Made by a program: the position numbers and the translations under genes. A DNA stretch of 64,000 bases from Candidatus Levyibacteriota bacterium (GTDB lineage Bacteria; Patescibacteriota; Microgenomatia; Levybacterales; UBA12049), in contig JAJDCH010000009.1 of the NCBI GenBank assembly GCA_029260905.1, positions 26,498 through 90,497 of the forward strand, given 5' to 3'. Each line of letters opens with the position of its first letter. Within the stretch, counting starts at the first letter, position 1. This document shows positions 26,172 to 42,284 of the stretch, one piece after another. Below the pieces are notes generated by a model. The model saw only the letters and a list, made by a program, of their open reading frames with translations, searched no databases and had not been told where the DNA came from.

Positions 26172-26258
26172 CGGAGGGAGGGGGATTCGAACCCCCGATA
26201 ATCTTTCGACCATACGAGCTTTCCAAGCCCGCGCACTCGACCACTATGCGATCCCTCC
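26172..26258 (-). tRNA. tRNA-Ser (GGA anticodon)
   Basis: GGAGGGA acceptor, anticodon loop TTGGAAA, long variable arm, T-arm GGGGGTTCGAATCCCCC; 87 nt. Confidence 0.7.
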
Positions 26259-26344
26259 TATTTGGGTATTGTAACAAAAACACCTCAGCCAGTCACCCAA
26301 ACCACCTTGACAACCCCCTCAAAATACATCACACTAAAATTAGT

Positions 26345-28345
26345 ATGCGCCCTGTCCTGAAACGTTTTTTTGCTTTTTGCTTTTTGCTTTTTGCTTTTTG
26401 CTTTTTGCCAAATACTGCTTTTGCCCAAACCACATCTACGTTAAATCAGACCACAAAATCAACTAATTCTTTTACTGAGCCAGATCTTGACCCCAGCGTA
26501 CCACGAAATCAGCATATTTATACTCAATCTGTGATGATTGAGGTCTTATCAGCAGTTGTTTGTCAGATAACAGGGCTTGATCCTGTTAACCCTTATCAGG
26601 GGTGTCTTGGCGTCAATCCCCAGACTCGAAAACTTAGCCTCATCCCACCCAGTCTTGATGAAAAAGGCAGTCCACAAGTGGGGGGGTTACTTGGCGCCAG
26701 CGCCAACATGATTGCAGTGCTTTATGTTCCAACAACTAGCTCTACAGATTATTTTAAGCACGTCGCCGGTAATTTTGGCCTAGTCAAGTCCGCACAAGCA
26801 CAAGAGGATAATAGCTATGGTTTGATTGCTCTTCAGCCTGTCTTTGGTCTTTGGGAAACAGTTCGTAATGTCTCATATACACTTCTTGTTCTGGCATTTG
26901 TGTTCATCGGTGTTGGAATCATGGTTAGATTTAAAATAGATCCAAGAACTGTTATGAATCTCCAAAACCAAATCCCAAGAGTAATCATCACAATTATTCT
27001 TATCACTTTTTCTTATGCAATATCAGCTGTTCTTATTGACATGATGTGGGTTAGTACTTATGCAGGAGTAAGGGTGCTTGGAGATAGTAGCGATACGAAA
27101 ATAAATGACTGTAAAAGCGATAAACCTGAAAGTCTTTCTGAAAACGCAACCAAAAACCTGCTTCAAACACCGCTTACTTATTTCCACAATGTCTTTGGAG
27201 AATGTGATGAGAGTGATGTAAACAAGTACGATGGTGGTTTTCATCGTGTTACATTTGGAGTTGCTGGCAATCTAGGACAAGTCCTCAATGACACAGCCAA
27301 AAGTCTTTTTCAAACAGATGAAAACCGTGAAGAGGGCTGCTTCAGTTTTTCAGGAATCAAACCAAACATCAACCCAGGCGCTTGTCTGATCTCAGGCATC
27401 ACTGGAGTGATGAGCTTCATGCTTATAATTGTTATCTTTGTAATTCTTTTAATTACACTTTTTAGGATCTGGTTTGCGCTTTTGAAGGCATACATCTATA
27501 CACTTGTTTTTGTTATTACTGCGCCTGTTTATTATGTGCTTGGTCTTTTACCCTCCCGTCCTCTTGGATTTCAAAAATGGCTGAGGTCTTTTTTCGCAAA
27601 TATCGCTGTTTTCCCGATAACTGCATTTGTCTTGGTGGGCGCGCGCCTCATGATAGATCTTTACAAAAACGATCTAGCAGATAAATTTGTGCCTCCATTG
27701 GTGGGAACGCCGGTTGGTGCCAATTTCGGAGTCTTAATGGCATTTGGTGCTCTTCTCATCACTCCCTCTCTACAACAGATTCTCAAAGACAAACTAGGTG
27801 TCAAGGGTATTGCGTCACCTGGTCTTATCGCAGCAGGTCTTGCAGTTGGAGCATCCCCTGTCAGCTATCTTGCAGGACGCATGAAGGGCAATCTAACAAG
27901 ACGAGATTCCCATGGTAATCCAATCGGCTCTGTGTCAAGAGGCGTTGAACAAATAGGAAAAAGCGCATATGCGGGGACTATTGGCAAGCTCCCAGGAGGA
28001 GTAGGTAAATGGGCAACACAAAGACAAAAAGAAAATTATGAAATGCGCGCAATGGGAATGGGTGGGAAAACAACCTACAAAGAATTCTTAAAAACAACAG
28101 GCATGAGCGGGAAAGAGATTGATGAAGGCGTTGGTAATATAATACGAGATAAAAAATATAAAGACGACGATTCTGGTAAAGCAAGAGATAAAGCACTAAG
28201 AGACATGACGCATGAAAAGGCTAGAAACCGTCATGTTGACTTTGGTTCCCATGTCCAACACGGAGAATCTGGAACTGGCAGGACTGCTCCAAGAAGACAA
28301 ACACCACCAGACAACAATAACGGTGAAGATAGCAACACTGGTTAA
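26345..28345 (+). CDS. polytopic membrane protein, candidate VirB6/TrbL-like type IV secretion channel component
   Basis: Signal peptide, about 150-aa extracytoplasmic region, at least six TM helices, hydrophilic Gly/Lys-rich C-terminal tail. Start placed at ATG 26345 because the track ORF start (26246) runs into a tRNA. Confidence 0.4.
   Translation: MRPVLKRFFAFCFLLFAFCFLPNTAFAQTTSTLNQTTKSTNSFTEPDLDPSVPRNQHIYTQSVMIEVLSAVVCQITGLDPVNPYQGCLGVNPQTRKLSLIPPSLDEKGSPQVGGLLGASANMIAVLYVPTTSSTDYFKHVAGNFGLVKSAQAQEDNSYGLIALQPVFGLWETVRNVSYTLLVLAFVFIGVGIMVRFKIDPRTVMNLQNQIPRVIITIILITFSYAISAVLIDMMWVSTYAGVRVLGDSSDTKINDCKSDKPESLSENATKNLLQTPLTYFHNVFGECDESDVNKYDGGFHRVTFGVAGNLGQVLNDTAKSLFQTDENREEGCFSFSGIKPNINPGACLISGITGVMSFMLIIVIFVILLITLFRIWFALLKAYIYTLVFVITAPVYYVLGLLPSRPLGFQKWLRSFFANIAVFPITAFVLVGARLMIDLYKNDLADKFVPPLVGTPVGANFGVLMAFGALLITPSLQQILKDKLGVKGIASPGLIAAGLAVGASPVSYLAGRMKGNLTRRDSHGNPIGSVSRGVEQIGKSAYAGTIGKLPGGVGKWATQRQKENYEMRAMGMGGKTTYKEFLKTTGMSGKEIDEGVGNIIRDKKYKDDDSGKARDKALRDMTHEKARNRHVDFGSHVQHGESGTGRTAPRRQTPPDNNNGEDSNTG
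26365..26408 (+). repeat. heptanucleotide tandem repeat (TTTTTGC) x6 inside the signal-peptide codons of the VirB6-like gene
   Basis: Read directly: tttttttgc tttttgc tttttgc tttttgc tttttgc tttttgc, encoding FAFCFLLFAFCFL. Confidence 0.8.
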
Positions 28346-31300
28346 TTAGATTTCGTCTGTTGGGCAATTGCTCTGATGAAAAATCCAAGCGCTGCCAAAA
28401 ACGCAACAAAACCTATCTTGCCATCAGGATGCCCTCTTTGACCAACAGTCAGATCTTTCAACATCTGGACACCAAACATCCTTTCTGTTGCAGTTTTTGC
28501 CCTCTTATGAAACCACTCCATATCAGCCTTGTTGAAATATCCTTCTTCAGCCTTAATCTTACCCAATTTTGTAAATTCATCACCCTCAATATCAACCGGC
28601 AGACTTTTTAATGCATCAATAACATTGAGATAATAGGTAAAATCATACCTTGGGTCTTTTGCATGATAAGCTTTATGGGCTAGGAAATCTGCTGCGAATT
28701 TCGACATAATAAACTGCTTAACAAGAAGCCTCTGGTTTTTGCTATCCTGCACTTTATGATAATCAATCCTGATCCTTCCATCTTCATCTCTTTCATAACC
28801 ACCATCTTTACTATCTTTCCAAAATTCTTTTCTGTTTAGCATGTCATAACCAAACATTGCCTCACCAAGTGGCATATCCCGCCAGACAGGCTTGCCAAGC
28901 ACAATTGTGGCCTGCTGATCAAGCGATCTGACCTTTCTTGAAAAATCAAGTTTTCCATAATCTCTAAATAAATATCTAAGAGGTTTAACAAAGTTTTTCT
29001 GGTAAGCATTGGTAAATTTCTCAGCATCAAATGTCACACCTTTTAATGGATGGTGAGTTGTAAAATCCTCAAACTTAAACTGCTCCTTCTGCTCCATAAT
29101 GGTGTCATACATATGAAGCGCCTTCTGGAAATGATCACGAACATAATATTCCTGAGCACCCTGCTCAAATTGCAATTTACCAGCCCTATCAAGATAAGCT
29201 TGATCCATCTGAGATTTTGCCTCAGCCATTCTCTTTTCTTTTTCTTCTTTTGAGAGACCTGCGCCATTCAGATCTGCGTTAAGCTTTTCAAGTAGTTTTT
29301 TTTGTGTTGTCTTCAGCTTTATCAGCTCATCAAATATCTCAAGAGGTGTGCGATAACGCTTAACTGAATCCTTTACCCACTCGCCTTTTTCATTTCTATA
29401 CTCACGGTCAACTTCTTCAAAATCGGTTGTCCTTATACCGCTCCACATATCAACCAGCAGCGACTTCATCTGAAACATAGAGAAAAAATTACCAAAAAAA
29501 TCTCCCCTTGGAAGCATTTTGTTTCGATATTGCTGAAAATGCATAAGCCTGTTATAGCGGTTAAAACCTCCTGCTTCTACATCATTTCTACCTGCTCCTC
29601 CTGAAAAACCAGGAATGGAGTTTGCAAGCATATATGCATACCATCTGGCATGCTCGTCCCTTTTACCATCATCATCATTTAGTTCATACTTGTCTCCCAC
29701 CACCTCCATGAGGGCATATTTAAGAAAAGTTTCTACATTTGGATCAGGACCCTTATCACCATAAATATTTATAAACTTGATAAAATTCTCTGCCTGCTCT
29801 CTTGTCTCCACTCTACCTGTTTTTGCATCAAATGCTTTTTCAAAATACTTAAGCTTTTCAGCTGTAAATGGTGCGGACTGTCTTTTCTCGCCAGACACAC
29901 CAGTCTGCATGCTTTGAACATTCTTGAAAATCTCAAGCATTTTTTTCTTATCAAAGAAATCAGACTTTGACCCCAGCATTTCCCGCAGTTTGTCAAAATC
30001 AGACAAATGATGAAGTATGTGATGCATCTCAAGCCAAGCAGCACCAAGATTGTTATCTGACTGAAACTCTTCTCCTTTTTTATATCCTTTGAATTTATGA
30101 GAAAAAGTAGTCATCAGATTCAAAAGATTTTTTTCAAAAGTTTGTTTGGTAAGCTTACTGTCTAAAAACGCTTCGAGCATTCCTTGCTTGAGCTTGTCTG
30201 GCTCATCCCTTATTTTATGAAGCTGAGTACTCCAACTATGAGTAAGCGTAAGCGCCATTGACTGCTTAACCAGCTGACGATAAAGCTCATAGTATTCAGT
30301 TTTACCATCTTCGCTATTAAAAAATTTCTTTGGGTTAAGAAAAACATCTTGCAGTGAAACAGTACCAAAACCAGAAGGTCTATCGATCTTAACAGCGCTA
30401 AAAAAATCAACAGGGCTTTCCTGATTAAAGTCCCAAGCAAACCACATCCTGTTTTGCGCCCAGGTCACAAAATTGGATTCATTTACATAGTATTTACTTT
30501 TTTCTGTATCTATTACTTTTTTCCCATTCTCTAGCACATAACCCTTCCTTGGATCATCATCTATATGTTTGTAAATAATCCGCATTTCAAGCAGAGGAAA
30601 ACGTCCGCTTAGTCCCCATTCGCCATGACCATAACCATTCATAGCTCTCCAGGCAAGTCCCTCAATTGAATCAGGATTTCTATCTGCCTCATGATCATTT
30701 TCAGCTGTAAAATCTTTATAAAAAACAAACTTTCTGATCCAATCAAATGGAAGGTTTAATTTTTGCAAAAGACAGAAAGCTGCAGGGTTGTTTTTATAAT
30801 TCTCTGCTTGCCCTCTCTTCTCAGGATCATTAAGCCATTGATCAATTTGTGTTTTCGACTCCTGCGCCAATGTTTCAAGATTGGAAAAATCCTCAGGCTT
30901 TTTACCTTTAGCAAGCATTATTTCAAGTACTGATTTTGCCTGTCCAAAATCAAGATTAAGGTGAGTTACAAGATTTTTACCTACTTGTTTTATTTTTTCA
31001 TTGGTCCAACCCGTACCATACTCACTCCAATCAACCTTAATCTTTGACATCTTAACTACATCTGTCTCTTGTTTTATAAGTCCTCCATTCTCATTTTTCT
31101 CCACCCTCTCTCCGTTCTTGTCCTCTGCCACAAACCTCCACTCATCTCTTTTCCCTTTTATTGCCTCTCCTGGTGGTGGTTCGTTCTGTCTCTCATTCCA
31201 CTGATGTCCCTCCCTGCCCCCATTTATGCCACCGATTGTTGAAAGACCTTGTTGGATATCCTCTTCAATTTTTTGCATCTTGCGTCGCCACTGCCCAATT

Positions 31301-31518
31301 TCCATTTCAGCTCTTATCTGCCTATCCAACTCGTCCTTATCCGCAAGACTTCCACCCCTGGGTGGACCCATTCCGCGTTTTATAAACTCCATTACCGAGA
31401 ATCGCTTCTCATGTGGCAAATCCTCTATTCGCTTGCCTTCATGGGCTTCCCATTCTTTTTCCGCCCTTAACTGTTCTGGTGTTTTTTCGCTTGTCTGGTC
31501 AAGTACTGCTGCTTCCAT
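28342..31518 (-). CDS. giant hypothetical protein (1058 aa), K/E-rich, cytoplasmic, with a single C-terminal TM tail anchor
   Basis: Long uninterrupted frame; no signal peptide; C-terminal GKIGFVAFLAALGFFIRAIAQ; convergent 4-nt overlap with the VirB6-like gene. Confidence 0.45.
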   Translation of the reverse strand: MEAAVLDQTSEKTPEQLRAEKEWEAHEGKRIEDLPHEKRFSVMEFIKRGMGPPRGGSLADKDELDRQIRAEMEIGQWRRKMQKIEEDIQQGLSTIGGINGGREGHQWNERQNEPPPGEAIKGKRDEWRFVAEDKNGERVEKNENGGLIKQETDVVKMSKIKVDWSEYGTGWTNEKIKQVGKNLVTHLNLDFGQAKSVLEIMLAKGKKPEDFSNLETLAQESKTQIDQWLNDPEKRGQAENYKNNPAAFCLLQKLNLPFDWIRKFVFYKDFTAENDHEADRNPDSIEGLAWRAMNGYGHGEWGLSGRFPLLEMRIIYKHIDDDPRKGYVLENGKKVIDTEKSKYYVNESNFVTWAQNRMWFAWDFNQESPVDFFSAVKIDRPSGFGTVSLQDVFLNPKKFFNSEDGKTEYYELYRQLVKQSMALTLTHSWSTQLHKIRDEPDKLKQGMLEAFLDSKLTKQTFEKNLLNLMTTFSHKFKGYKKGEEFQSDNNLGAAWLEMHHILHHLSDFDKLREMLGSKSDFFDKKKMLEIFKNVQSMQTGVSGEKRQSAPFTAEKLKYFEKAFDAKTGRVETREQAENFIKFINIYGDKGPDPNVETFLKYALMEVVGDKYELNDDDGKRDEHARWYAYMLANSIPGFSGGAGRNDVEAGGFNRYNRLMHFQQYRNKMLPRGDFFGNFFSMFQMKSLLVDMWSGIRTTDFEEVDREYRNEKGEWVKDSVKRYRTPLEIFDELIKLKTTQKKLLEKLNADLNGAGLSKEEKEKRMAEAKSQMDQAYLDRAGKLQFEQGAQEYYVRDHFQKALHMYDTIMEQKEQFKFEDFTTHHPLKGVTFDAEKFTNAYQKNFVKPLRYLFRDYGKLDFSRKVRSLDQQATIVLGKPVWRDMPLGEAMFGYDMLNRKEFWKDSKDGGYERDEDGRIRIDYHKVQDSKNQRLLVKQFIMSKFAADFLAHKAYHAKDPRYDFTYYLNVIDALKSLPVDIEGDEFTKLGKIKAEEGYFNKADMEWFHKRAKTATERMFGVQMLKDLTVGQRGHPDGKIGFVAFLAALGFFIRAIAQQTKSN

Positions 31519-31650: not shown

Positions 31651-31678
31651 TTGCGCTTTGAGTTTTGCGCTTTGAGTT
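31651..31678 (+). repeat. 14-bp direct repeat x2 (TTGCGCTTTGAGTT) overlapping the promoter of the regulator gene
   Basis: ttgcgctttgagtt ttgcgctttgagtt is followed at once by TATAAT (31680-31685) and ATG 31692. Confidence 0.75.
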
Positions 31679-31685
31679 TTATAAT
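31658..31685 (+). promoter_or_regulatory. putative promoter TTGAGT-16nt-TATAAT embedded in the direct repeats, leaderless-type
   Basis: The -35-like TTGAGT lies inside the first repeat copy; TATAAT sits 6 nt before the ATG. Confidence 0.35.
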
Positions 31686-31691
31686 CTATTT

Positions 31692-33026
31692 ATGGACGAA
31701 TATTTTGAAGCAACATATCCTGATACCGCACGAATTGCGACACTGAGTCAAATTGCCGATTTTGTCAAAAAAGGCGAATCCGCACAGCTGATTGGATTGC
31801 CCACATCTGGAAGATCTATAATTCTCAGACTCCTTGCACACAACAGCAAAGTGCGGTCAAAACACTTTGGCAAAAATTCCAAATTCCATTTTGTATTAAT
31901 TGACTTTTCAGAAATAAAAAACAGATCACTTTTTGACTGCATGAAGTTTTTCTTTTTGTCCCTGTCTGATTCTCTAAGAGCACGAGGAATGGATGAAGAA
32001 TATAAAAAAGTAAATCAATTATTTAAAGAGTCACTCAGCTTTAATGACGAGCTGGTTTTGTTTCAGGCCTTAAAAGACGCATTTGACTATCTTATCCTTG
32101 AAAGAAACCTAAACATTACATTACTCTTTGACAGATTTGAAGAATATATTCCAAGTATTACAGATCAGTTTTTTACCAACCTTCGCACTCTTCGCTCTCG
32201 CGCAATTTATAAGTTTTCAGTTATTTTTTCTCTTACCCGTCCGCTTGAGACCATGCTTGACCCATTACTTCTTGCCGATTTTTATGAACTAATTGCCGGC
32301 AATCTGATATTTCTATCCCTTGCAGATAGTGAAATAAACAAAACAAGAATAAAACATATTGAAAAAGTAACAGGCAAAAAACTCTCTTCAGTTCTTTTTG
32401 ATGAACTAACAAAACTGACAGGCGGAGCGGGCAAGCTTCTAAAAATTTCTACAGAAAGCATATTGGCCAATCAACAATTTAACAATTTAGCTATAGAGCA
32501 ATTGAGCAAAAATTTATTGCCCCAAAAACCAGTTCAAAAAACTCTGTCTGAAATCTTGCGTTCTCTGACACCTGAGGAACAGTCAGATCTCCTTACTCAA
32601 AAGTATGATAACTCTGATGTTGAGGAATATTTCGAAAAAATAGGTCTTGTTAAAAATAAAAGGATTCAAATTCCACTTTTTGAGGAATATCTGAAATCAG
32701 ATTTGATTAAAAATTCAATAAATGAAGAAAAAATTTTCTATGATAAAAATACCAATACAATCAAAAAGGGCGAGACAACTGTTTCTGACCAGCTTACTTC
32801 ATCTGAGTTCTTACTTCTCAGGCATCTTTTGCAAAATAAAGGTCAGGTTATAACTCGCGATGATATAATCAGCGCTGTCTGGCCGGATGTGAAATCAACT
32901 GCAGGAATAACTGATCAAGCAGTTGATCAGTTGATATTTAGATTAAGAAGAAAAATTGAAGAAAATCCCGCCAGTCCAGTCTATCTTTTTACTATTAAAG
33001 GACGCGGTTTCAAGTTTGAATCATAG
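31692..33026 (+). CDS. transcriptional regulator: N-terminal NTPase-like domain (degenerate P-loop) fused to a C-terminal OmpR/PhoB-type winged-helix DNA-binding domain, with no receiver domain
   Basis: C-terminus LTSSEFLLLRHLLQNKGQVITRDDIISAVWPDV...VDQLIFRLRRKIEEN...TIKGRGFKF is a Trans_reg_C signature; N-terminal LIGLPTSGRSIILRLL is P-loop-like. Start placed at ATG 31692; the track start is 31665. Confidence 0.55.
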   Translation: MDEYFEATYPDTARIATLSQIADFVKKGESAQLIGLPTSGRSIILRLLAHNSKVRSKHFGKNSKFHFVLIDFSEIKNRSLFDCMKFFFLSLSDSLRARGMDEEYKKVNQLFKESLSFNDELVLFQALKDAFDYLILERNLNITLLFDRFEEYIPSITDQFFTNLRTLRSRAIYKFSVIFSLTRPLETMLDPLLLADFYELIAGNLIFLSLADSEINKTRIKHIEKVTGKKLSSVLFDELTKLTGGAGKLLKISTESILANQQFNNLAIEQLSKNLLPQKPVQKTLSEILRSLTPEEQSDLLTQKYDNSDVEEYFEKIGLVKNKRIQIPLFEEYLKSDLIKNSINEEKIFYDKNTNTIKKGETTVSDQLTSSEFLLLRHLLQNKGQVITRDDIISAVWPDVKSTAGITDQAVDQLIFRLRRKIEENPASPVYLFTIKGRGFKFES

Positions 33027-33075: not shown

Positions 33076-33609
33076 ATGAAAGAGGGTAATCACATTGTTA
33101 TTCCATTCAGACCGAAAGTACGCGGTGGGGAAACAGTGCCTCAAGTAGAACAAAAAAAGAAAAAGCAATCAACTCTAAAAACAGCTATGGATTTGGTGCA
33201 GGAGCATGATCCCGCTATTCCTCAAACAACAAAAAGATTTTCAATGCGACAAAGATATCGAGGCAACTGGAGGATGCTTAGAACATCAGCTGGTAGAGAA
33301 ATGTACAACAAGGTTCTAGCGATAAAATATCTTCGCGCAGAAACAGCAAGCAAAAAAGAGCAATCCAAACCTAACAGGGAAAATGAAAAAGCACCAAGAA
33401 CGCGACAAAAAGAAACGCTGGTTGCGAGTTTCAAAAACAGAAAAAGGCTTAGAAAAGAAAGCGCTGCAACTGGAATAAATCTTGGTATGTTTGTGCCAGA
33501 GACTCCAAAACAAGAAATTGACTCCAAGCTAAAAAAAGAATTAAGAAACAGACCATTTACTGTTTTTGATGCAGGAAAAAATAAAACAAAGGAGAAACAA
33601 GCCGCTTAA
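33076..33609 (+). CDS. hypothetical highly basic (K/R-rich) protein
   Basis: No TM helix; about 30% K plus R; possibly nucleic-acid binding. Confidence 0.35.
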   Translation: MKEGNHIVIPFRPKVRGGETVPQVEQKKKKQSTLKTAMDLVQEHDPAIPQTTKRFSMRQRYRGNWRMLRTSAGREMYNKVLAIKYLRAETASKKEQSKPNRENEKAPRTRQKETLVASFKNRKRLRKESAATGINLGMFVPETPKQEIDSKLKKELRNRPFTVFDAGKNKTKEKQAA

Positions 33610-33652: not shown

Positions 33653-33976
33653 ATGGCTTATCTTGCTCAATTGCGACTTCCAGGCGGCAACAATATCGAT
33701 GCCCCAAAAGGCATTCCCCAGGGTGGAATAAATGAAGTTCAATCAATCTTCAGCAACAGCATTACTATCATGATTATACTGACAATCATTCTTGCTCTTT
33801 TCTTTCTTATCTGGGGAGGTATCCAATGGATCACATCAGGTGGGGATAAAAATAAGGTAGCACAAGCCCGAGCCAAACTAACCTGGGCAATAATTGGTGT
33901 TGTTGTTGCTTTTGTTTCGTTTTTAATCGTAAATCTTATTGGATACTTCTTTAATATCCCAATTTTCGGGTCTTAA
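33653..33976 (+). CDS. VirB2/TrbC-like small membrane protein (pilin candidate), paralogue 1
   Basis: Two TM helices flanking the invariant FFLIWGGIQWITSGGDKNKVAQARAK motif shared with the next two genes. The N-terminus lacks a clear signal peptide, so the start is uncertain. Confidence 0.4.
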   Translation: MAYLAQLRLPGGNNIDAPKGIPQGGINEVQSIFSNSITIMIILTIILALFFLIWGGIQWITSGGDKNKVAQARAKLTWAIIGVVVAFVSFLIVNLIGYFFNIPIFGS

Positions 33977-34043: not shown

Positions 34044-34469
34044 ATGAAAAAGGCACAAAACATAATCTTAGCTTTATTTGTCGCTCTATCTCTTTTTGTC
34101 TTTACACCAGCTGTTGTTTTTGCTGGTCCTACGATAAATCCATGTCCAGACGGAGCTGACGGAGGCGGAACTGACTTCGGCAACCTTTGCGACCTTGACG
34201 CTGACCAAGTCGGTCCATTGATTTCAAGAGTTGTACAGATTCTTCTTATCGCTGCTGCAATTATTGCTCTTTTCTTTCTCATCTGGGGAGGTATTCGCTG
34301 GGTAACATCAGGTGGAGACAAAGCCAAGGTAGATGAAGCCAGAAAACACATTGTTGCTGCAATAATTGGTCTGATTATTGCTTTCCTAGCATTCTTTATC
34401 TTAAGTTTTGTACTTAACCTCTTTGGAATAAGCCTTACTGAATTACAGCTTCCACAGCTTACTCCATAA
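34044..34469 (+). CDS. VirB2/TrbC-like small membrane protein (pilin candidate), paralogue 2
   Basis: Signal peptide, then TM-loop-TM with FFLIWGGIRWVTSGGDKAKVDEARKH. Confidence 0.45.
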   Translation: MKKAQNIILALFVALSLFVFTPAVVFAGPTINPCPDGADGGGTDFGNLCDLDADQVGPLISRVVQILLIAAAIIALFFLIWGGIRWVTSGGDKAKVDEARKHIVAAIIGLIIAFLAFFILSFVLNLFGISLTELQLPQLTP

Positions 34470-34514: not shown

Positions 34515-34919
34515 ATGACACAAATTAAAAAATCCTTTGTTTTTTTCTTAATGCTTACAGGCTTATTTGCTATGCTCCCAAGTCCAGCTCTCGCAAACAG
34601 CTGGGACAGTTGTGTTAAAAAGCTTCCAGCCGGAGGCGAGGTCCCAACTCTTAGATGTTTTCCGGTTGTATTTAGCAATCTTACCAGCACAGCTCTTACA
34701 TTTGTGGGCGCAGTTGCTGTAATTCTTATTGTCTATTCGGGCATCAAATTTGTAACATCAGGTGGAGATCCCAAGAAAGTCGGTGAAGCTCGAGCAATTA
34801 TGACCTATGCGATAATTGGTGCAGTAATAGTTCTGCTATCTTTTACAATAATTTATCTGATTAGCTACTTTACAGGCGCGGATTGTGTAACTGATTTTTC
34901 TATTGGAAGCTGCAATTAA
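34515..34919 (+). CDS. VirB2/TrbC-like small membrane protein (pilin candidate), paralogue 3
   Basis: Signal peptide, then TM-loop-TM with ILIVYSGIKFVTSGGDPKKVGEARAI. Confidence 0.45.
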   Translation: MTQIKKSFVFFLMLTGLFAMLPSPALANSWDSCVKKLPAGGEVPTLRCFPVVFSNLTSTALTFVGAVAVILIVYSGIKFVTSGGDPKKVGEARAIMTYAIIGAVIVLLSFTIIYLISYFTGADCVTDFSIGSCN

Positions 34920-35035: not shown

Positions 35036-36397
35036 ATGGACCAGCACCCAATACCCCAAGATGTTACAGGCTTTCAATTTAAGCTTATTGGAAGCATGAC
35101 TGTAAAACAGTTTGGCTTTGTTGCAACTGGGGTTATAATGGCAGTTCTTTTCTACTACCTGCCACTTAGCGGGTTTTTTGGTATTCTTTTCAAGATTTTT
35201 GCAATTCCCTTTTTTGGAGCAAGTGGCTTTATAATTGCATTTGTACCAATTGATGGCAGGTCAATTGATGTAATGGTCGGAAATTTTACTAAAGCGCTTT
35301 TTTCTCCCAATCAGTACGTCTATCACAAACTCGGCAAAAAATTTAGCTTCTCAACAGTCAATACTCACAAGAGTCTTTTTGCCCAAAATCAAACCACCAG
35401 CTCTCATCCAAAACAAGAAGTAACACAAAAAACAGATCAGCTTCGATCATTTCTAAAAGAAAGCGTCAAATCAAAACCAAAAAGCGCATTAGATGAAAAA
35501 GAAGCTGCTTTTATCAGCTCTTTTGCTCCAGCACCTCAAACAACTCCCCAAGCGGCCATTTCTTCACATCCAACAAAAAACATACCCATGCTTCAGCAAG
35601 CACAACAAATACTGTCATCTATAAAGCCGGTTCAAACCATTACGCACCAAACACCTAACCAAACCCCTCAACAAACAAAAAAGGCCATCCAAGATACTAC
35701 AAATCCAATTGATCAAAATAACCCAACTAGTAAAAATGTGCCTGAGCATAATCAAGCACCAGCTGCAAAACCAATAGACGCAGAGCCTGACTCGCTTCAT
35801 AAACAAATTCAAGAAGCGCATAACCAAAAACTCAGACTAGAAAAAGAATTGGCTGATTTAAAAGCTCAACTAGGCACGCGTAAAACCCAACCAGAACCTG
35901 AACCATCTCAAGCAGCAACACAGATGTCTTCAACGACAACCACCCCTGCTCAACCAACAAAACCAACAGAAACAAACACTATGCCTGCTACACAGCCTCA
36001 ACAAGCGACAACGTCAGTTGCTCCAACACCAAGCTCAACACACGTAAGAAGTATTCCAAAAGAACAATCTAAAAAAATGGGTCTTCTCGCGCCAGATACT
36101 CCAAATGTCATAGTTGGTGTAGTCAAAGACGCCAGAGGCAATCTTCTCCCAAACGTGCTTGTTGAGGTCAAAGACAGGGAAGAAAACCCAGTTCGCGCAT
36201 TTAAAACAAATCCTCTTGGACAGTTTGTTTCAGCAACCCCTCTTTTACCGGGCGCGTATACAATAAGCCTTGAGGACCCCAAAAAACAACACACATTTGA
36301 TGAGATTCAGATAACGGCAGGCGGCCAAATCTTACCACCCATTGAGATAATTTCTTATGACGCCAGAGAACAACTAAGAAGAGAGTTGTTTAATTAA
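35036..36397 (+). CDS. PrgI/VirB3-like membrane domain fused to a Q/T/P-rich linker and a C-terminal carboxypeptidase-regulatory-like beta-sandwich domain
   Basis: N-terminus MDQHPIPQDVTGFQFKLIGSMTVKQFGFVATGVIMAVLFYYLP...FVPIDGRSIDVMVGNF matches the PrgI-family pattern; C-terminus VIVGVVKDARGNLLPNVLVEV...GAYTISL is CarboxypepD_reg-like. Start placed at the internal Met. Confidence 0.45.
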   Translation: MDQHPIPQDVTGFQFKLIGSMTVKQFGFVATGVIMAVLFYYLPLSGFFGILFKIFAIPFFGASGFIIAFVPIDGRSIDVMVGNFTKALFSPNQYVYHKLGKKFSFSTVNTHKSLFAQNQTTSSHPKQEVTQKTDQLRSFLKESVKSKPKSALDEKEAAFISSFAPAPQTTPQAAISSHPTKNIPMLQQAQQILSSIKPVQTITHQTPNQTPQQTKKAIQDTTNPIDQNNPTSKNVPEHNQAPAAKPIDAEPDSLHKQIQEAHNQKLRLEKELADLKAQLGTRKTQPEPEPSQAATQMSSTTTTPAQPTKPTETNTMPATQPQQATTSVAPTPSSTHVRSIPKEQSKKMGLLAPDTPNVIVGVVKDARGNLLPNVLVEVKDREENPVRAFKTNPLGQFVSATPLLPGAYTISLEDPKKQHTFDEIQITAGGQILPPIEIISYDAREQLRRELFN

Positions 36398-36409
36398 TTT
36401 ATATAACTT

Positions 36410-37093
36410 ATGCCTGTTCAAAAAGCACATGCTACAACGCAAAAATTTACAGAGATTGTTGACTTTGTCGACAATCTGGTAATCCTTGAGGGGGGAGCTG
36501 CTTGCCTTGTGATTGAAATAACAGCTAGCAACTTCTCGCTTCTATCCAGAAGAGAGCAGGATTCTCGTATTTTTTCTTACGCTTCGCTTCTTAATTCACT
36601 TTCTTTTCCAATACAAATACTTATCAGAAATAAAAAAATGGATATATCGCTTTATCTAAGAGAGCTAGATGCTGTTGTTAAAAGCACCAAAAACGAACAA
36701 CTGGCAACATATATTGATTATTATCGAGATTTTGTTCAGGAAATGGTGACAGTAAACGTTGTTTTAAACAAAGCTTTTTATATCGTCATTCCATTTTCAT
36801 CACTTGAGCTGGGCATTGGTGGAGCAACAAAACAAGCAACAAAAAAAGGCTCTCCAGCCCCATCTCAAAAAGATGTTTTTGCTCAAACAGCTGCAAAAGC
36901 TCTGCAATCAAAGGCAAGCTCAGTCCTTGGACAGCTTCAAAAATTTGCGGTAACAGCTCGTGTTCTTGAAAAGGAAGACCTAGTGAAGCTTTTTTATGAT
37001 ATATACAATGACGGCGCAAATATAGGAACTGAGCAGGTAAAAGATGCTGCAGATACTCCAATCATAAGAAAAGAAGGAGAAGTTCAAGCATGA
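36410..37093 (+). CDS. hypothetical protein, possibly the detached N-terminal domain of a split VirB4
   Basis: EIVDFVDNLVILEGGAACLVIEITASNFSLLSRREQDS resembles the VirB4 N-terminal region. ATGA overlap with the downstream VirB4 ATPase gene. Confidence 0.3.
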   Translation: MPVQKAHATTQKFTEIVDFVDNLVILEGGAACLVIEITASNFSLLSRREQDSRIFSYASLLNSLSFPIQILIRNKKMDISLYLRELDAVVKSTKNEQLATYIDYYRDFVQEMVTVNVVLNKAFYIVIPFSSLELGIGGATKQATKKGSPAPSQKDVFAQTAAKALQSKASSVLGQLQKFAVTARVLEKEDLVKLFYDIYNDGANIGTEQVKDAADTPIIRKEGEVQA

Positions 37094-39144
37094 AAATCCC
37101 ATTTTTAAATAAATCATCCAAACAAACACCCACCTCACAAGTGGTAAAAAAAGCGCAAGGCGTTCCCCAACAAAAAACTGCACCTCAGGTTGTAAAACCG
37201 CAACAAAATAAAGCTATTGCAACGCTTGAGAAGGGCGCAACGTCAGTTATTGACATAATAGCTCCCTCATCTGTTGAAGTTGACTTTCGTTATGTCAGGG
37301 TTGGCGAGACCTATTACACAACTCTTTTTCTCGCTGGCTATCCACGCTATGTTTCTCCAGGCTGGCTAACGCCAATTATTGATTATGACCATACATTGGA
37401 TATCAGCATGTTTATTTACCCAACCTCATCATCAGACGTTCTTAGTGATTTAAAAAGAAAAATTGGTGAAATGCAAGCAACTATTTCATCTGATGCAGAA
37501 GCAGGCAAAGCAACAGACCCGACAGTTGAGGCGGCGCTTGAAGACGCGCTTGGTCTTCAGGAAGAGCTAGCCAAGGGAGTTGAGAGATTCTTCCAGTTTG
37601 GTTTTTATATCACTGTTTCAGCAGGAGACCTGGGAGAACTCCAAGAAACAACCAAAGAATTAAAAACCACACTAAGCTCTCTTCTTCTTGCAGGCAAAAC
37701 AGCAACTCTTCAGTCAGAAGAAGGCTTTAAGTCAACTCTTCCAATCGGACAAGACAGGCTTTATATAACACGAAATATGGATACCACCTCTCTTGCAACC
37801 ACCTTTCCCTTCACATCAGCTGTTTTAACTCAAAATAAAGGCGTAATGTATGGAGTGAATCAACAGAATGGGTCACTTATCATCTTTGACAGATTTTCCC
37901 TTGAAAATGCCAATGAGGTGGTTCTTGGAAAATCTGGCGCGGGAAAATCTTACACAATTAAGCTTGAAATCGCCAGACAATTCATGCTTGGCGCAGAGGT
38001 TATTGTAATTGATCCTGAAGGAGAGTATGGAACACTTACTCCAACCCTCGGAGGTGAGACAGTTGATTTTTCATCAAACTCCGAAGTAAAACTAAACCCT
38101 TTTGACCTTGCAGATGTTTATGAAGAGGGCGAAAACCAATTGGGGTTGAAGATTCTTTCTCTACACGGACTTCTAAAAATAATCATGGGGGACATGGATG
38201 CAGAGCATGATGCTATTCTAGACAGAGCCTTAATTGAAACTTATCGTCAAAAGGGAATAACTACCGACCCTGCAACCCAAAAAAAACAACCCCCACTTAT
38301 GGAAGATCTTTATAAAGCGCTCCTTGGCATGGAAACACAAACTGCAAAAGACCTAGCTTTCAGGCTCGAGAAATTCATCAAAGGTTCTGCTGCTGGGATT
38401 TTTAATCAACAATCAAACTTCGTAATCGACAATCCTCTAACAGTTTTTTCAATCCGAAACCTTGAAGAGGAGTTAAGACCAGTTGCAATGCACATCATTC
38501 TTGATTTTGTCTGGACAAAGGTTAAAAAAACTCTTAAAAAAAGAATTCTGATCCTTGATGAAGCATGGTACATGATGAAATATCAGGACTCTGCATCGTT
38601 TGTCTACTCAATTGCAAAAAGAGCGCGTAAATACTACCTTGGCATGACCACGGCTACACAAGATGTCGAAGACTTTCTCAAAAACGAATATGGCAAGGCG
38701 GTTCTCACCAACTCATCAATCCAAATACTTCTTAAGCAAGGGACTGCTGAGGTCGATATGATCGCTGATACGTTTTATTTATCGGAGGGAGAAAAGGCCC
38801 TTCTTCTTTCATCTGATGTAGGGGAAGGACTTTTCTTTGCCGGACAAAACCATGTAACCATGAAGGTGTTTGCAGCGCCTTTTGAGCATGAATTGATAAC
38901 ATCCAATCCTCAAGAGGTTATGAAACGACAAGAAGAAGAAAAGGCAGAAAGAGACACTGAGGCAGCAGAGTCAGCTTCTCAAGCTCCACAAGCAGCACAG
39001 CAGACCACAACACAACAACCTAGCCCTCAGACAACACCACAAACACCTGCTCCTGAAGCGCCAGCTGCTCCCCAAGCCCAAAATTCCACAACTCCAACTA
39101 CTACACCTCCGGGTGTTCCCCCAACTGCTCAGCAGACATCATAG
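37090..39144 (+). CDS. VirB4/TrbE/CagE-family type IV secretion ATPase (ATPase portion) with Pro/Gln/Thr-rich C-terminal tail
   Basis: Walker A VVLGKSGAGKSYTIK, VIVIDPEGEY, Walker B RILILDEAW, and the upstream GYPRYVSPGWL region typical of VirB4. Confidence 0.7.
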   Translation: MKIPFLNKSSKQTPTSQVVKKAQGVPQQKTAPQVVKPQQNKAIATLEKGATSVIDIIAPSSVEVDFRYVRVGETYYTTLFLAGYPRYVSPGWLTPIIDYDHTLDISMFIYPTSSSDVLSDLKRKIGEMQATISSDAEAGKATDPTVEAALEDALGLQEELAKGVERFFQFGFYITVSAGDLGELQETTKELKTTLSSLLLAGKTATLQSEEGFKSTLPIGQDRLYITRNMDTTSLATTFPFTSAVLTQNKGVMYGVNQQNGSLIIFDRFSLENANEVVLGKSGAGKSYTIKLEIARQFMLGAEVIVIDPEGEYGTLTPTLGGETVDFSSNSEVKLNPFDLADVYEEGENQLGLKILSLHGLLKIIMGDMDAEHDAILDRALIETYRQKGITTDPATQKKQPPLMEDLYKALLGMETQTAKDLAFRLEKFIKGSAAGIFNQQSNFVIDNPLTVFSIRNLEEELRPVAMHIILDFVWTKVKKTLKKRILILDEAWYMMKYQDSASFVYSIAKRARKYYLGMTTATQDVEDFLKNEYGKAVLTNSSIQILLKQGTAEVDMIADTFYLSEGEKALLLSSDVGEGLFFAGQNHVTMKVFAAPFEHELITSNPQEVMKRQEEEKAERDTEAAESASQAPQAAQQTTTQQPSPQTTPQTPAPEAPAAPQAQNSTTPTTTPPGVPPTAQQTS

Positions 39145-39167: not shown

Positions 39168-40445
39168 ATGGACATTGAGAACAAATTACCAGAAGAAGAT
39201 CAATCAGAAGAACAAGAAAACAATGACCGATCTAGCCCCTCAAATCCCAGCTCCAATGGCAGGGGTGAAAAAAAGGAAGCCAAGAACGAAGTAAAACAAA
39301 ACAAAAAAGAAAATATTGACAAAAACGATCAAAAAGCTAAGGGCAAAGATGATGCTCTCAATCAACAACACAGCAAAGATAAAGGGCTAGGACTTTTAAG
39401 CAAAAAATTAAAGGCTGTTCGCGAAGCAAAAAGAGGAGAGAGGCTTAAGGCTGCAAAAACCTTAGCCAAAAGCGCAATCAAAAAAAAAGTTTTGCAAGCT
39501 GCTAAAAAAGGTCTTATTGCTGGTGGAAACACCATTGCGCCTGGACTTGGTACTGCTACAGGGTTTGCTATAGATCATCCCAAAACAGCTGCAATTATTG
39601 TTGTCTTGGCCATTACACTTCCAATTATAATATTAACTATGGTTTTTTCTGCATTTACCAGTTCTTTAAACACTTCTGGTGAGGGTGATTCCGTTTTTGT
39701 TTCAGGCTCTTGTCCACATGATGCGATTGCTGGCGGCGTGGCAGAATGTTCGATAAACGTTTCTTATCCTGGAGAAGCATCAGACATACTAATTTCAATT
39801 GACCTTCCACCTGGCACTGAATATATCGACTCTGTGCCTGAAGCCACTTTTGACGGCAAGACCATCTCGTGGAGTCTTATTGGCCCAAACCCCTTACCAA
39901 ACGCAAAACTAAGCAATGTCAACACAACCCTGCTTTTCCATCTACGTGGAAGTGGTGTTCCCTCGGCAAGCCTACCCATTGCTTACTCGATTGTTCCATT
40001 TGTTGAATCAGAAACCCCCATTCAAGAAGCATTAAACAATTCTGGTTGTGATGGATCAACCCCGAATAATCCTCATGGAAATTTTGGCAACCCAAATTGC
40101 GATTTTAATAAAAATGAATTGGGTAAAATTTTAAGAAGAGAAGACCCTGCCAACGCATACAAATGGGATGCAATAATAGCTTGTGAGAGTACATACAACC
40201 CAAACGCCTATAATCCAAATTCCTCTAGTGGAAAAGGGGCATATGGGCTTTTGCAGATGAATCCCGCACAACAAAGAACTGATATTTATAGATTTGATGC
40301 TGGAAATGTAAACTGGAACCCAGACAGTAGGCCACTTGGTGTTGCAGCAGGAGCACAGGTTACAAACGCAATAAACTATAATACTATTGGATTGAAAGGA
40401 AGTTTCAAGTATTGGGAATGTAGAAAGGCAGCTGGAATAAGATGA
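39168..40445 (+). CDS. membrane-anchored cell-wall hydrolase: DUF11-like repeat domain plus Rpf-type lysozyme-like transglycosylase domain (VirB1 functional analogue)
   Basis: K-rich N-terminus, TM (AAIIVVLAITLPIIILTMVF), DUF11-like SINVSYPGEASDILISIDLPPGTEYI, and C-terminal WDAIIACESTYNPNAYNP...GKGAYGLLQMNP resembling the Rpf transglycosylase-like domain. Confidence 0.5.
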   Translation: MDIENKLPEEDQSEEQENNDRSSPSNPSSNGRGEKKEAKNEVKQNKKENIDKNDQKAKGKDDALNQQHSKDKGLGLLSKKLKAVREAKRGERLKAAKTLAKSAIKKKVLQAAKKGLIAGGNTIAPGLGTATGFAIDHPKTAAIIVVLAITLPIIILTMVFSAFTSSLNTSGEGDSVFVSGSCPHDAIAGGVAECSINVSYPGEASDILISIDLPPGTEYIDSVPEATFDGKTISWSLIGPNPLPNAKLSNVNTTLLFHLRGSGVPSASLPIAYSIVPFVESETPIQEALNNSGCDGSTPNNPHGNFGNPNCDFNKNELGKILRREDPANAYKWDAIIACESTYNPNAYNPNSSSGKGAYGLLQMNPAQQRTDIYRFDAGNVNWNPDSRPLGVAAGAQVTNAINYNTIGLKGSFKYWECRKAAGIR

Positions 40446-40981
40446 TAAACATAGACAAAAAATACATTTTACTAGGAGCGCTTTTTTTAACTCTTGTGTT
40501 TGTGCTTGTGTTAATTGCAACCGGATCAGTCGGAGCGCCAGTTGCAGAGGACCAGTCAACAATTCCAACACAATCACCTATTGATGGCAATCTTGATCAA
40601 GCCAACACAATTCCACCCGTCACATACAATACTGATGCAAGTAAAAAACAGATTGAGAAAAAAGAAAACAGAATTCCTTTGACTCAATCTGATCTTGATG
40701 CCAAACAAGAAATTCTTTCCCTTCTGCCTGAAGGGCAGAGCTATGGAATTATTTATTCGTCAGAAAATTTCAATATTGAATACGTAGAGTCTTTAGATTT
40801 GATAAAGGTAGAAATTTTGTCAAACAGTATTGAAGATATTAAAACCGAAGCTGTTAACTGGTTTAGGGATCAAGGATTGAGCCAGGAGGGAGTTTGCAAC
40901 TATCCGGTTGATTTTTATCTAGGTTCTGGCGTTGTCCCGGATGGCGGAGAAATATTTAGCCCTATTGCGCCAGGTTGTTGA
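40442..40981 (+). CDS. hypothetical bitopic membrane protein (N-terminal TM plus about 150-aa external domain), possible VirB8/PrgL-like component
   Basis: Topology and size only; ATGA overlap with the upstream gene. Confidence 0.3.
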   Translation: MINIDKKYILLGALFLTLVFVLVLIATGSVGAPVAEDQSTIPTQSPIDGNLDQANTIPPVTYNTDASKKQIEKKENRIPLTQSDLDAKQEILSLLPEGQSYGIIYSSENFNIEYVESLDLIKVEILSNSIEDIKTEAVNWFRDQGLSQEGVCNYPVDFYLGSGVVPDGGEIFSPIAPGC

Positions 40982-40993
40982 GAGTTTTAAAAT

Positions 40994-41698
40994 TTGTTTA
41001 TGAGAAAAAAATTAAATATTTTGTTTATATTTTTAATGATCTCTGTTTTTTCAATCATTAACCCCCTAATTGTCTCTGCTCAGACGGGAATTGCTTGTAT
41101 TGATGTTTATTTTGACCCAGGCGCACCTAAACCAGATCCAGCAGAGGGTTGTCCTGATGTGGCTGCACCGGGAGAAATACCAAGCGCTGACAGGACAGCT
41201 CTTTTACAACAAATTTCTACTTTTATTAACAATGGCACCATCTCTTTTTCTCATGACAATGACAAAAACGCAATGCTTGGTAACGGTATTGTCCAGAGGA
41301 GGGTTGGAACCGGAACTGTAGAAATAAGCACTAAGGCGCTACGAATGTATGTTTATATGGCTAATCAGGGTTTTAAATTCAACGTTTCATCTATGATAGG
41401 AGGACACTCAAGGTGTGTTAAGGGGTCTAGTCCTTGCCGCGAATCTGCCCATTGGTCAGGAAGAGGAGTTGATATTAACAATATAAATGATTTTGATATA
41501 GACACAAACAGGTCTAGGGAATCCCAAAATACATTAAAAAATTTTATGATTGTTTTAAACAATATGCCGACAGAGATTTCCCCTCGTCAAATAATTTGCT
41601 CTGGCAATGGTGTGGTAGACTCCTCTGTCTTAGCTTTACAAAAGGGTGTAAGTGGTATTGTTGATGGGCACCTAGATCATGTTCATATAGGTTATTAA
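40994..41698 (+). CDS. secreted peptidase M15-family (VanY/endolysin-like D-Ala-D-Ala carboxypeptidase fold) cell-wall hydrolase
   Basis: Signal peptide; SAHWSGRGVDIN (S-x-H-x-x-G-x-x-x-D zinc motif) and C-terminal DHVHIGY. Confidence 0.45.
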   Translation: MFMRKKLNILFIFLMISVFSIINPLIVSAQTGIACIDVYFDPGAPKPDPAEGCPDVAAPGEIPSADRTALLQQISTFINNGTISFSHDNDKNAMLGNGIVQRRVGTGTVEISTKALRMYVYMANQGFKFNVSSMIGGHSRCVKGSSPCRESAHWSGRGVDINNINDFDIDTNRSRESQNTLKNFMIVLNNMPTEISPRQIICSGNGVVDSSVLALQKGVSGIVDGHLDHVHIGY

Positions 41699-41699
41699 T

Positions 41700-42284
41700 A
41701 TGGATAAAGTGAACTTTCTCAAAAAAAATAAATGGATATTCAGCTTGGTTGTGTTTATTGTTTTTTTGCTGGGCGCATTCTCACTTATTCCATCAAGCAC
41801 CAATCAATTTCCTGAAGAAATTACCCCCACCAGATCTCCTGAGTCAAGTCAAAATGGGTTTTCTGAAGAAGATCCAAAAAATTTTGCTCATGAATATGAG
41901 TTTGATCCCTTAATCGTAGAAGGAGCGACCAATCAAGAGGTATTAACAGACGGAACAATAATATATTCTGTTCCTTCAGAAAACCCAAACCGACCAGATG
42001 AAGTTTATGTAAAAAATGGTCTTATTGTTTTTAAAAGTGTATATATTCCCATAAGCTGGACTATGAAGCTTTCTGAGCTTGTAGAATTTACGGGTGATCC
42101 TCCGTGGATTTTTGAAGGGTCTAAATATTATGGTGACACAATAAGGGTTTATGTTTACCCTGATATGGGGCTTGCATTGATTGTGGATGAAGATAAAGAT
42201 TTAGTGTTGGAGCAACACCTTTTTGACCCCATGCCTGTTGAGCAATACATTGAAAGGTATGGGGAGGATATCCCTGCGCGTTAG
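41700..42284 (+). CDS. hypothetical bitopic membrane protein
   Basis: N-terminal TM WIFSLVVFIVFLLGAFSLIP; no motif. Confidence 0.35.
   Translation: MDKVNFLKKNKWIFSLVVFIVFLLGAFSLIPSSTNQFPEEITPTRSPESSQNGFSEEDPKNFAHEYEFDPLIVEGATNQEVLTDGTIIYSVPSENPNRPDEVYVKNGLIVFKSVYIPISWTMKLSELVEFTGDPPWIFEGSKYYGDTIRVYVYPDMGLALIVDEDKDLVLEQHLFDPMPVEQYIERYGEDIPAR

Follow-up and report, generated by a model that had tools for sequence, protein, structure and literature searches.

A long-tailed PrgI/VirB3 subunit, conserved across Levybacteria, carries a transthyretin-like domain on a chromosomal type IV secretion system

On which side of the membrane, and to what end, would a core subunit of a type IV secretion system (T4SS) carry a long tail that finishes in a folded domain? 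The question is raised by one gene in a 64,000-nucleotide (nt) stretch of Candidatus Levyibacteriota DNA (assembly GCA_029260905.1, contig JAJDCH010000009.1; the whole stretch is called the window), whose 453-amino-acid (aa) product joins a PrgI/VirB3 membrane module to a Gln/Thr/Pro-rich linker and a C-terminal transthyretin-like beta-sandwich (the C-domain). VirB3 is the least understood core T4SS subunit and is normally too small for a part beyond anchoring VirB4, the cytoplasmic ATPase of these machines; the Patescibacteria, which include the source organism, are ultrasmall bacteria. We describe the protein as a lineage-conserved long VirB3/PrgI of the chromosomal Levybacteria T4SS and consider it probable that its tail is a cytoplasmic, tethered docking or regulatory module, the docking function being what we infer for it. 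An earlier, sequence-only reading of the window had recognised the two domains and their fusion, in which it was right, and had placed the tail outside the cell, in which it was probably wrong. Positions below refer to the whole window, and residue numbers to the 453-aa window protein.

Both domain identifications of that reading held when run against Pfam. PF12666 (PrgI) spans aa 5-96 over the full profile (1-91 of 91) with 33.2 bits against a gathering cut-off of 27, and PF13620 (CarboxypepD_reg) covers aa 359-430 with 31.0 bits, slightly below its cut-off of 32.3, which some homologues exceed (35.1 and 33.1 bits). Nine of ten distant homologues also match PF12666, one of them (P0206) marginally below the cut-off at 26.8 bits. 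PrgI here means the T4SS protein of pCF10, the VirB3 equivalent, and should not be confused with the needle protein of Salmonella. Its sequence, its hairpin and its genomic neighbours place the window protein in the PrgI/VirB3 family. A tblastn search of the module against 72,556 plasmids (E-value ≤ 1) gave zero matches, its divergence from plasmid PrgI being beyond the reach of BLAST, so that the hidden Markov model alone recognises it; VirB3/TrwM was not among the matches of a PDB profile search with the family profile. The sequence-only reading had also been correct that PrgI and VirB3 are usually small (117 aa for pCF10 PrgI and 10-15 kDa for VirB3, PMC12857230). The present family departs from that size and from its short cytoplasmic extensions, at 453 aa in the window and 364-523 aa across related loci.

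To judge whether this length is genuine, we compared the window protein with its relatives. At least 1397 database proteins match it, and among genomes scanned at one per species, 195 encode a relative, of which 80 loci were fetched; all locus counts refer to these 80, whose matches span query residues 1-453 or very nearly (the worst, 15-452, lies at a contig end). The gene is a single open reading frame (ORF) in 80 of 80 loci, with no split version seen, and orthologues thereby carry the same fusion, which the sequence-only reading had proposed to check. The best 120 of the at least 1397 matches are 392-493 aa long with 44-51% identity and, save for a few partial ones, 100% query coverage; both precomputed Pfam domains (PrgI and CarboxypepD_reg) are present on 115 of these 120. 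The alternative that a sequencing or assembly frameshift joined a small prgI to a downstream secreted beta-sandwich gene, which the sequence-only reading had itself offered as its undoing, has in its favour the unusual length beside the canonical 117-aa PrgI and nothing else; it is refuted by the same one-ORF architecture in 80 independent loci from many studies and assemblers together with the homologue matches, and we regard it as vanishingly improbable. Within the gene, the ATG at 35036 is the true start, since an alignment with 50 homologues shows M1 and most positions up to residue 26 (MDQHPIPQDVTGFQFKLIG.MTVKQF) to be invariant or near-invariant. Neither the 453-aa form read from this ATG nor a 468-aa form read from a TTG has an identical entry in the contig index. 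As judged by comparative sequence, the fusion is genuine and under selection.

The 80 loci are mostly titled Candidatus Levyibacteriota/Levybacteria or Patescibacteria, and the few other titles (“Gammaproteobacteria”, “Lysobacterales”), from automated submissions of metagenome-assembled genomes (MAGs), are probably mislabels. A HMMER search with the C-domain alone over 1.84 billion representatives returned 166 clusters at E-value ≤ 1e-30 and 890 at E-value ≤ 1e-10. The domain sits at, or a few residues from, the C-terminus in 150 of the 150 best representatives, and nine of ten low-ranked matches checked carry an N-terminal PrgI module; the tenth (P0257) begins within the linker and looks like an N-truncated fragment. 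Ranked match lists are filled by the long family, and the long form appears to be characteristic of Levybacteria-like Microgenomatia. Over the 80 loci, median identity was 64% for the C-domain, 56% for the PrgI module and 54% for TrsD, the product of the next gene, compared with about 70-74% for VirB4, only 32% for the secreted SLT hydrolase and about 45% for the pilins; the C-domain thus comes close to VirB4 (74%). Neither a C-terminal extension of PrgI nor a CarboxypepD_reg domain on it came up in term searches of PMC12102498, PMC10633639, PMC12857230 and the full-text literature searched, and literature searches yielded no description of the PF12666 and PF13620 combination or of a long PrgI in Patescibacteria. 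The fusion is a hitherto undescribed, lineage-conserved form of a known subunit in a known system.

For conservation, hydropathy and AlphaFold2 modelling, we used an alignment of 51 sequences (the window protein and 50 homologues). The mean predicted local distance difference test score (pLDDT) of the model was 67.7, with confidence splitting sharply by region. The PrgI module comprises a near-invariant motif (aa 1-25), a first transmembrane helix (TM1, aa 26-45), a short loop, a second (TM2, aa 47-70) and a C-terminal helix (aa 77-89); AlphaFold2 returned confident hairpin helices at 23-41 and 47-69 and then the helix at 77-89, hydropathy windows were confined to aa 21-74 with two membrane helices only, and the conserved parts of the module are its flanks.

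Beyond the module, aa 111-345 are composed of Q (13.2%), T (13.2%), P (11.5%), S (9.8%) and A (9.8%), and this stretch is 135-273 aa long among the 51 aligned homologues, with shorter variants occurring; in a low-GC relative (P0263) the linker is E/K/N/S-rich and not Pro/Thr-rich. The pLDDT falls below 50 at 107-124, 167-246 and 288-328. The low-complexity linker of the sequence-only reading stands as to its Q/T/P-rich composition and falls as to uniform low complexity, with two conserved helical elements lying inside it. An origin of the linker in DNA-level tandem repeats was considered and rejected, as only tiny repeats of 9-13 nt were found. The first of the two elements is a helix pair (AlphaFold2 helices 125-145 and 151-163 at moderate confidence, pLDDT about 72-81) with invariant L136, L140, D153 and E156, and F159 and L160 kept in at least 90% of the aligned sequences; this mid-linker motif is retained in a 295-aa short variant (P0213) and is a candidate docking motif. 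The second (aa 250-282) is confidently predicted (pLDDT about 89-96) as a coiled coil of four to five heptads, with near-invariant L254, L268, L275 and L279; L254, H262, Q264, K265, L268, E269, E271, L275, Q278 and L279 are kept in at least 90%. In the PDB profile search this segment weakly matches GCN4, other coiled coils and DotF, and it is a probable oligomerisation element. The short variant, read by eye, has no recognisable coiled-coil segment and keeps the C-domain.

The C-domain is modelled very confidently (pLDDT 91-98) as beta strands followed by the terminal helix, in a transthyretin-like beta-sandwich fold whose matches include transthyretin, HIU hydrolase, SpyCatcher and CnaB2. The last two matches led us to consider a CnaB-type intramolecular isopeptide bond; in a comparison by eye with SpyCatcher, the first-strand position holds Val and not Lys, which is a lead only and not a test.

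These features bear on the side of the membrane that the tail occupies, for which we favour the cytoplasm over the exterior. The highest 19-residue Kyte-Doolittle (KD19) score after the hairpin was 1.57 across all 51 homologues; with exactly two membrane helices, and nothing hydrophobic beyond them, the chain begins and ends on one face of the membrane. Counts of Lys and Arg were 2.0 in the N-terminal flank, 1.2 in the loop and 4.9 in the 40 residues after TM2 (51 sequences), which under the positive-inside rule argues for an N-in/C-in orientation. The same is expected from VirB3 elsewhere, which is described with two TM helices plus a C-terminal helix, and with short extensions at either end in the cytoplasm (PMC12857230), and which wraps the N-terminal domain of VirB4 in the R388 structure (PMC9259494); the Pfam match of the window protein takes in every one of these elements; VirB3-VirB4 fusions occur elsewhere (PMC12102498) and require the VirB3 C-terminus to be inside. 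By this analysis both termini would be cytoplasmic, with the VirB4 N-terminal domain bound.

A further pointer comes from VirB4 itself. In a composition scan that took in every window ORF of at least 120 aa, a 40-residue stretch with at least 70% P/Q/T/S/A occurred in two ORFs only, the PrgI fusion (0.85) and VirB4 (0.95). The remark in the sequence-only reading that VirB4 ends in a similar tail was well founded: its end is P/Q/T/A-rich and is the sole other such ORF segment in the window. Because VirB4 is a cytoplasmic ATPase, its tail points to an inward PrgI tail. Related VirB4 tails are 7-204 aa long and Pro-rich (23.6% P), with no conserved end motif, and their length correlates weakly with that of the PrgI linker (Spearman 0.34, p = 0.004, n = 69, uncorrected for phylogeny), which is suggestive.

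An extracellular tail, as the sequence-only reading had it in the form of an adhesin or spacer, would let the linker span the cell wall or S-layer and make the beta-sandwich an adhesin, a wall anchor, or a part of the conduit or pilus base. It would need an inverted, N-out/C-out VirB3 hairpin, and because a third TM helix is lacking, the near-invariant N-terminal motif would then have to be outside too; the positive-inside count opposes this orientation, the cytoplasmic termini and VirB4 binding of VirB3 are established (PMC12857230, PMC9259494), and the equivalent low-complexity tail is on a cytoplasmic protein. A host-facing adhesin is moreover not expected, because the C-domain is far better conserved than the exposed pilins and the SLT hydrolase.

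Several points nevertheless weigh for the exterior or against the cytoplasmic docking reading. Pro/Thr/Gln-rich linkers are typical wall-spanning spacers in monoderms, and the linker here has that composition. The structural relatives of the C-domain are overwhelmingly extracytoplasmic, at the cell surface or in the periplasm for the most part (carboxypeptidase D/N/M, the SusC N-terminal extension, CnaB pilin and adhesin domains, S-layer SlaB). The layout of a TM segment, Pro-rich linker, coiled coil and beta domain resembles VirB10, TonB and DotF, and the best PDB match of the family profile is DotF (E-value = 2e-4), confined to the linker and coiled-coil region; this match is probably compositional. 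The single N-in/C-out anchor of VirB10, TonB and DotF is absent here, with two TM helices and no third hydrophobic segment, and the C-domain showed no homology to the VirB10 barrel, the TonB C-terminal domain or the DotF C-domain. In Microgenomatia T4SS clusters no VirB6 can be recognised (PMC12102498), and some other component may therefore form the machine's outer part. A built-in substrate receptor is also not obviously needed, because a gene resembling a type IV coupling protein (T4CP) lies at 8014-10407. Taking both sides together, we consider an extracellular tail unlikely, although not lightly dismissed.

On the cytoplasmic reading, the hairpin and its conserved flanks would grip, at the membrane, either TrsD or the N-terminal domain of VirB4, and the extension of roughly 350 aa would reach down from the platform in the inner membrane into the cytoplasm. 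The linker has the length to descend alongside the ATPase, and the coiled coil would probably join adjacent tails. One beta-sandwich head per VirB3, presumably six per machine, would then lie near the cytoplasmic mouth of the VirB4 hexamer, where the heads and terminal helix may dock on the ATPase (assembly or gating control) or on cargo or adaptors (substrate recruitment), with the mid-linker motif (aa 125-163) as another candidate site for docking. VirB4's own Pro-rich tail would occupy the same compartment as the PrgI tail.

The tail might alternatively be cytoplasmic and purely structural, its coiled coils and beta-sandwiches forming a scaffold ring that stabilises hexameric VirB3/TrsD/VirB4 with no role in cargo or gating. 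The conserved coiled coil, the frequent oligomerisation of transthyretin-like domains (transthyretin and HIU hydrolase are among the matches) and the tight gene packing, which suggests stoichiometric co-assembly, are in keeping with such a ring; a long, length-variable disordered tether is odd for a rigid scaffold, and P0213, which is without a recognisable coiled coil, still has the C-domain and the mid-linker motif. We think this rather improbable, and it is a variant of the cytoplasmic docking or regulatory reading whose share is contained in the probability given to that reading and not additional to it. The idea that the tail replaces a missing coupling protein is weakened by the T4CP-like ORF. 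More speculatively, and with somewhat less confidence still, the VirB3 and Pro-rich VirB4 tails could form a cytoplasmic disordered “basket” under the T4SS, in which six heads act as a receptor or gate selecting entry to a relaxase-less system; in other systems that task falls to complexes of coupling protein and adaptors. If such a basket exists, the C-domain could be used directly as bait for the substrates of the Patescibacteria T4SS, which have long been sought.

Set beside known systems, the protein shares with PrgI (Enterococcus faecalis pCF10) and VirB3/TrwM (Agrobacterium, R388) a full PrgI Pfam match, a hairpin with a short helix after it and conservation of the N-terminal flank, as well as a gene just upstream of a VirB4-type ATPase and probable co-assembly. 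It differs from these canonical forms (10-15 kDa, with short cytoplasmic ends) in its linker of ~230 aa and its 119-aa beta-sandwich, and a separate trsD gene stands between prgI and virB4. In VirB3-VirB4 fusions (e.g. Campylobacter plasmids), the VirB3 C-terminus likewise runs into a large cytoplasmic polypeptide, which indicates that it can carry cargo on the cytoplasmic side; the added part here is a disordered tether with a beta-sandwich and not an ATPase, and VirB4 is a separate gene. DotF/IcmG, VirB10 and TonB have a similar linear layout, and DotF the weak profile match in the linker and coiled coil, but they are singly anchored N-in/C-out in a diderm periplasm, whereas this protein has two TM helices, a monoderm setting and a transthyretin-like C-domain. 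Sequence identity of the C-domain to carboxypeptidase D, the SusC N-terminal extension and CnaB-type pilin domains is only 12-24%. Compared with other transthyretin-like domains it has extra invariant residues (e.g. NPVRAFKTN.LGQF) and a conserved C-terminal helix, is C-terminal only (150 best representatives), and accompanies PrgI on nine of the nine full-length proteins checked.

That an order-level lineage keeps a folded, strongly conserved domain on a long VirB3 tether suggests an added interaction that can be studied, and the protein gives a concrete point of entry to this secretion system. The case also corrects a tempting misreading: a Pro/Thr-rich linker and an Ig-like domain do not by themselves make a “surface adhesin” when membrane topology points inward.

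The gene lies in a T4SS cluster whose features are collected in Table 1. The window is a Levybacteria (Microgenomatia, candidate phyla radiation (CPR)) chromosome carrying a Patescibacteria-type, monoderm MPF-FATA-like T4SS, with component matches, proximity to dnaA and related loci in Levyibacteriota/Patescibacteria MAGs all agreeing. Systems of this type have been described with a VirB4 related to monoderm MPF-FATA, abundant TrsD, PrgI/VirB3 and pilin arrays, usually without a relaxase and often near dnaA (Quinonero-Coronel et al. 2025, PMC12102498), and Southlakia epibionticum cannot do without its homologous T4SS (Wang et al. 2023, PMC10633639). In the one species tested, the Patescibacteria T4SS is required for growth as an epibiont, and published accounts assign it neither a function nor a cargo (PMC10633639, PMC11665869, PMC12857230). 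The window shares with these systems the gene set and order (pilin array, PrgI/VirB3, TrsD, VirB4, wall hydrolases), a chromosomal location adjoining dnaA/dnaN, the absence of a relaxase nearby and a T4CP homologue encoded far off.

Table 1. Features of the long-tailed PrgI/VirB3 gene and its neighbourhood (window positions; residues of the encoded protein).
Feature	Position	Strand	Residues	Evidence or remark
Long-tailed PrgI/VirB3 subunit gene, whole	35036..36397	+	453 aa	ATG 35036, stop 36395-36397; ORF list
PrgI/VirB3 module	35036..35350	+	1-105	PF12666, hydropathy, charge counts, AlphaFold2
Q/T/P/S/A/K-rich linker	35351..36037	+	106-334	Mostly predicted disordered; length varies across family
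Helix pair within linker	35408..35524	+	125-163	Consensus K...LQA.L..S....KN..DKKEAAFL
Coiled-coil helix	35783..35881	+	250-282	AlphaFold2 and conservation
Transthyretin-like (CarboxypepD_reg-type) beta-sandwich with conserved terminal helix (aa 443-452)	36038..36394	+	335-453	Best-conserved part
Three divergent VirB2-like T4SS pilin genes	33653-33976, 34044-34469, 34515-34919	+		PF18895, E = 2e-9, 1e-11, 5.5e-9
trsD, stand-alone, resembles VirB4 N-terminal domain	36410..37093	+	227 aa	VirB4_plasma 105-233, E = 1.6e-8; TrsD, E = 3.6e-4 (NCBIfam)
virB4 ATPase, CD1110-type	37090..39144	+	684 aa	NF045971, E = 4e-117, positions 178-733; Pfam P-loop_TraG
VirB4 C-terminal P/Q/T/A-rich disordered tail	38950..39141	+	621-684	Composition scan
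dnaN and dnaA	42281-45000	-		Directly after T4SS cluster

The pilin genes are directly upstream of prgI in the window, as pilins are in about 60 of the 80 loci; such arrays are reported to be typical of Microgenomatia and Saccharimonadia. Immediately downstream, trsD follows prgI in 80 of 80 loci, and its product, of a family described in Patescibacteria (PMC12102498), is a likely binding partner of the PrgI module. The virB4 gene overlaps trsD by 4 nt (ATGA) and was found in 79 of 80 loci, the exception (L002) ending before it; the order prgI, trsD, virB4 holds in the same number, 79 of 80, with gene gaps mostly of -4 to +6 nt. The ATPase appears “split”, trsD corresponding to the N-terminal part of the models and VirB4 aligning to the CD1110 model from 178 on. 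Since this recurs in 80 of 80 loci, it is the reported Patescibacteria arrangement of TrsD and VirB4 and not a frameshift; prgI and virB4 are separate ORFs with trsD in between, and are not a VirB3-VirB4 fusion.

After virB4 the cluster contains a gene for a membrane-anchored SLT-like hydrolase (39168-40445) and then three small ORFs (40442-42284, + strand; 179, 234 and 194 aa) with N-terminal hydrophobic segments and no Pfam matches. The first of the three recurs in 17 loci, and all are candidate VirB8-like or wall-associated components. The end of dnaN overlaps that of the convergent ORF 41700-42284 by 4 nt. The cumulative GC-skew minimum falls at about 38-40 kb, which together with the adjoining dnaN/dnaA puts the T4SS at the replication origin, where it is also reported to lie in Microgenomatia. 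At 8014-10407 (- strand), about 25 kb from virB4 and adjoining ribonucleotide reductase, a 797-aa ORF has the T4SS-DNA_transf, TrwB_AAD_bind and DUF87 domains of coupling proteins, and a VirD4-like ATPase is therefore encoded away from the cluster.

On the upstream side, two large ORFs at 28342-31518 (- strand, 1058 aa) and 26246-28345 (+ strand, 699 aa) have zero Pfam matches. In 12 related loci a protein about 27% identical to the 1058-aa one is encoded upstream of the pilin array, and the 1058-aa protein could be an unrecognised T4SS-associated component; VirB6 is the component reported “missing” in Microgenomatia. A 453-aa protein encoded at 31665-33026 (+ strand) has a C-terminal OmpR/PhoB-type winged helix (Trans_reg_C, E-value = 3e-18) and an N-terminal region with a weak resemblance to ORC/CDC6-like ATPases; its gene adjoins the pilin array in 28 loci, in either orientation, and it may be a dedicated T4SS regulator. 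Between it and the first pilin gene, a K/R-rich, highly basic ORF of 177 aa (33076-33609, + strand) had no Pfam match and no tblastn match in the 80 related loci, and may be lineage-specific or not a real gene. Promoter-like sites were not enriched in the window (17, against 18.7 ± 4.1 in shuffled sequence); terminator-like sites were somewhat commoner than in shuffled sequence (18, against 10.1 ± 3.3), none of them interpretable. The rest of the window consists of housekeeping genes. At 5319-6602 (+ strand), a 427-aa protein matches MATCAP (PF08014, microtubule-associated tyrosine carboxypeptidase; E-value = 3.6e-23), an unexpected family name for a reduced CPR genome.

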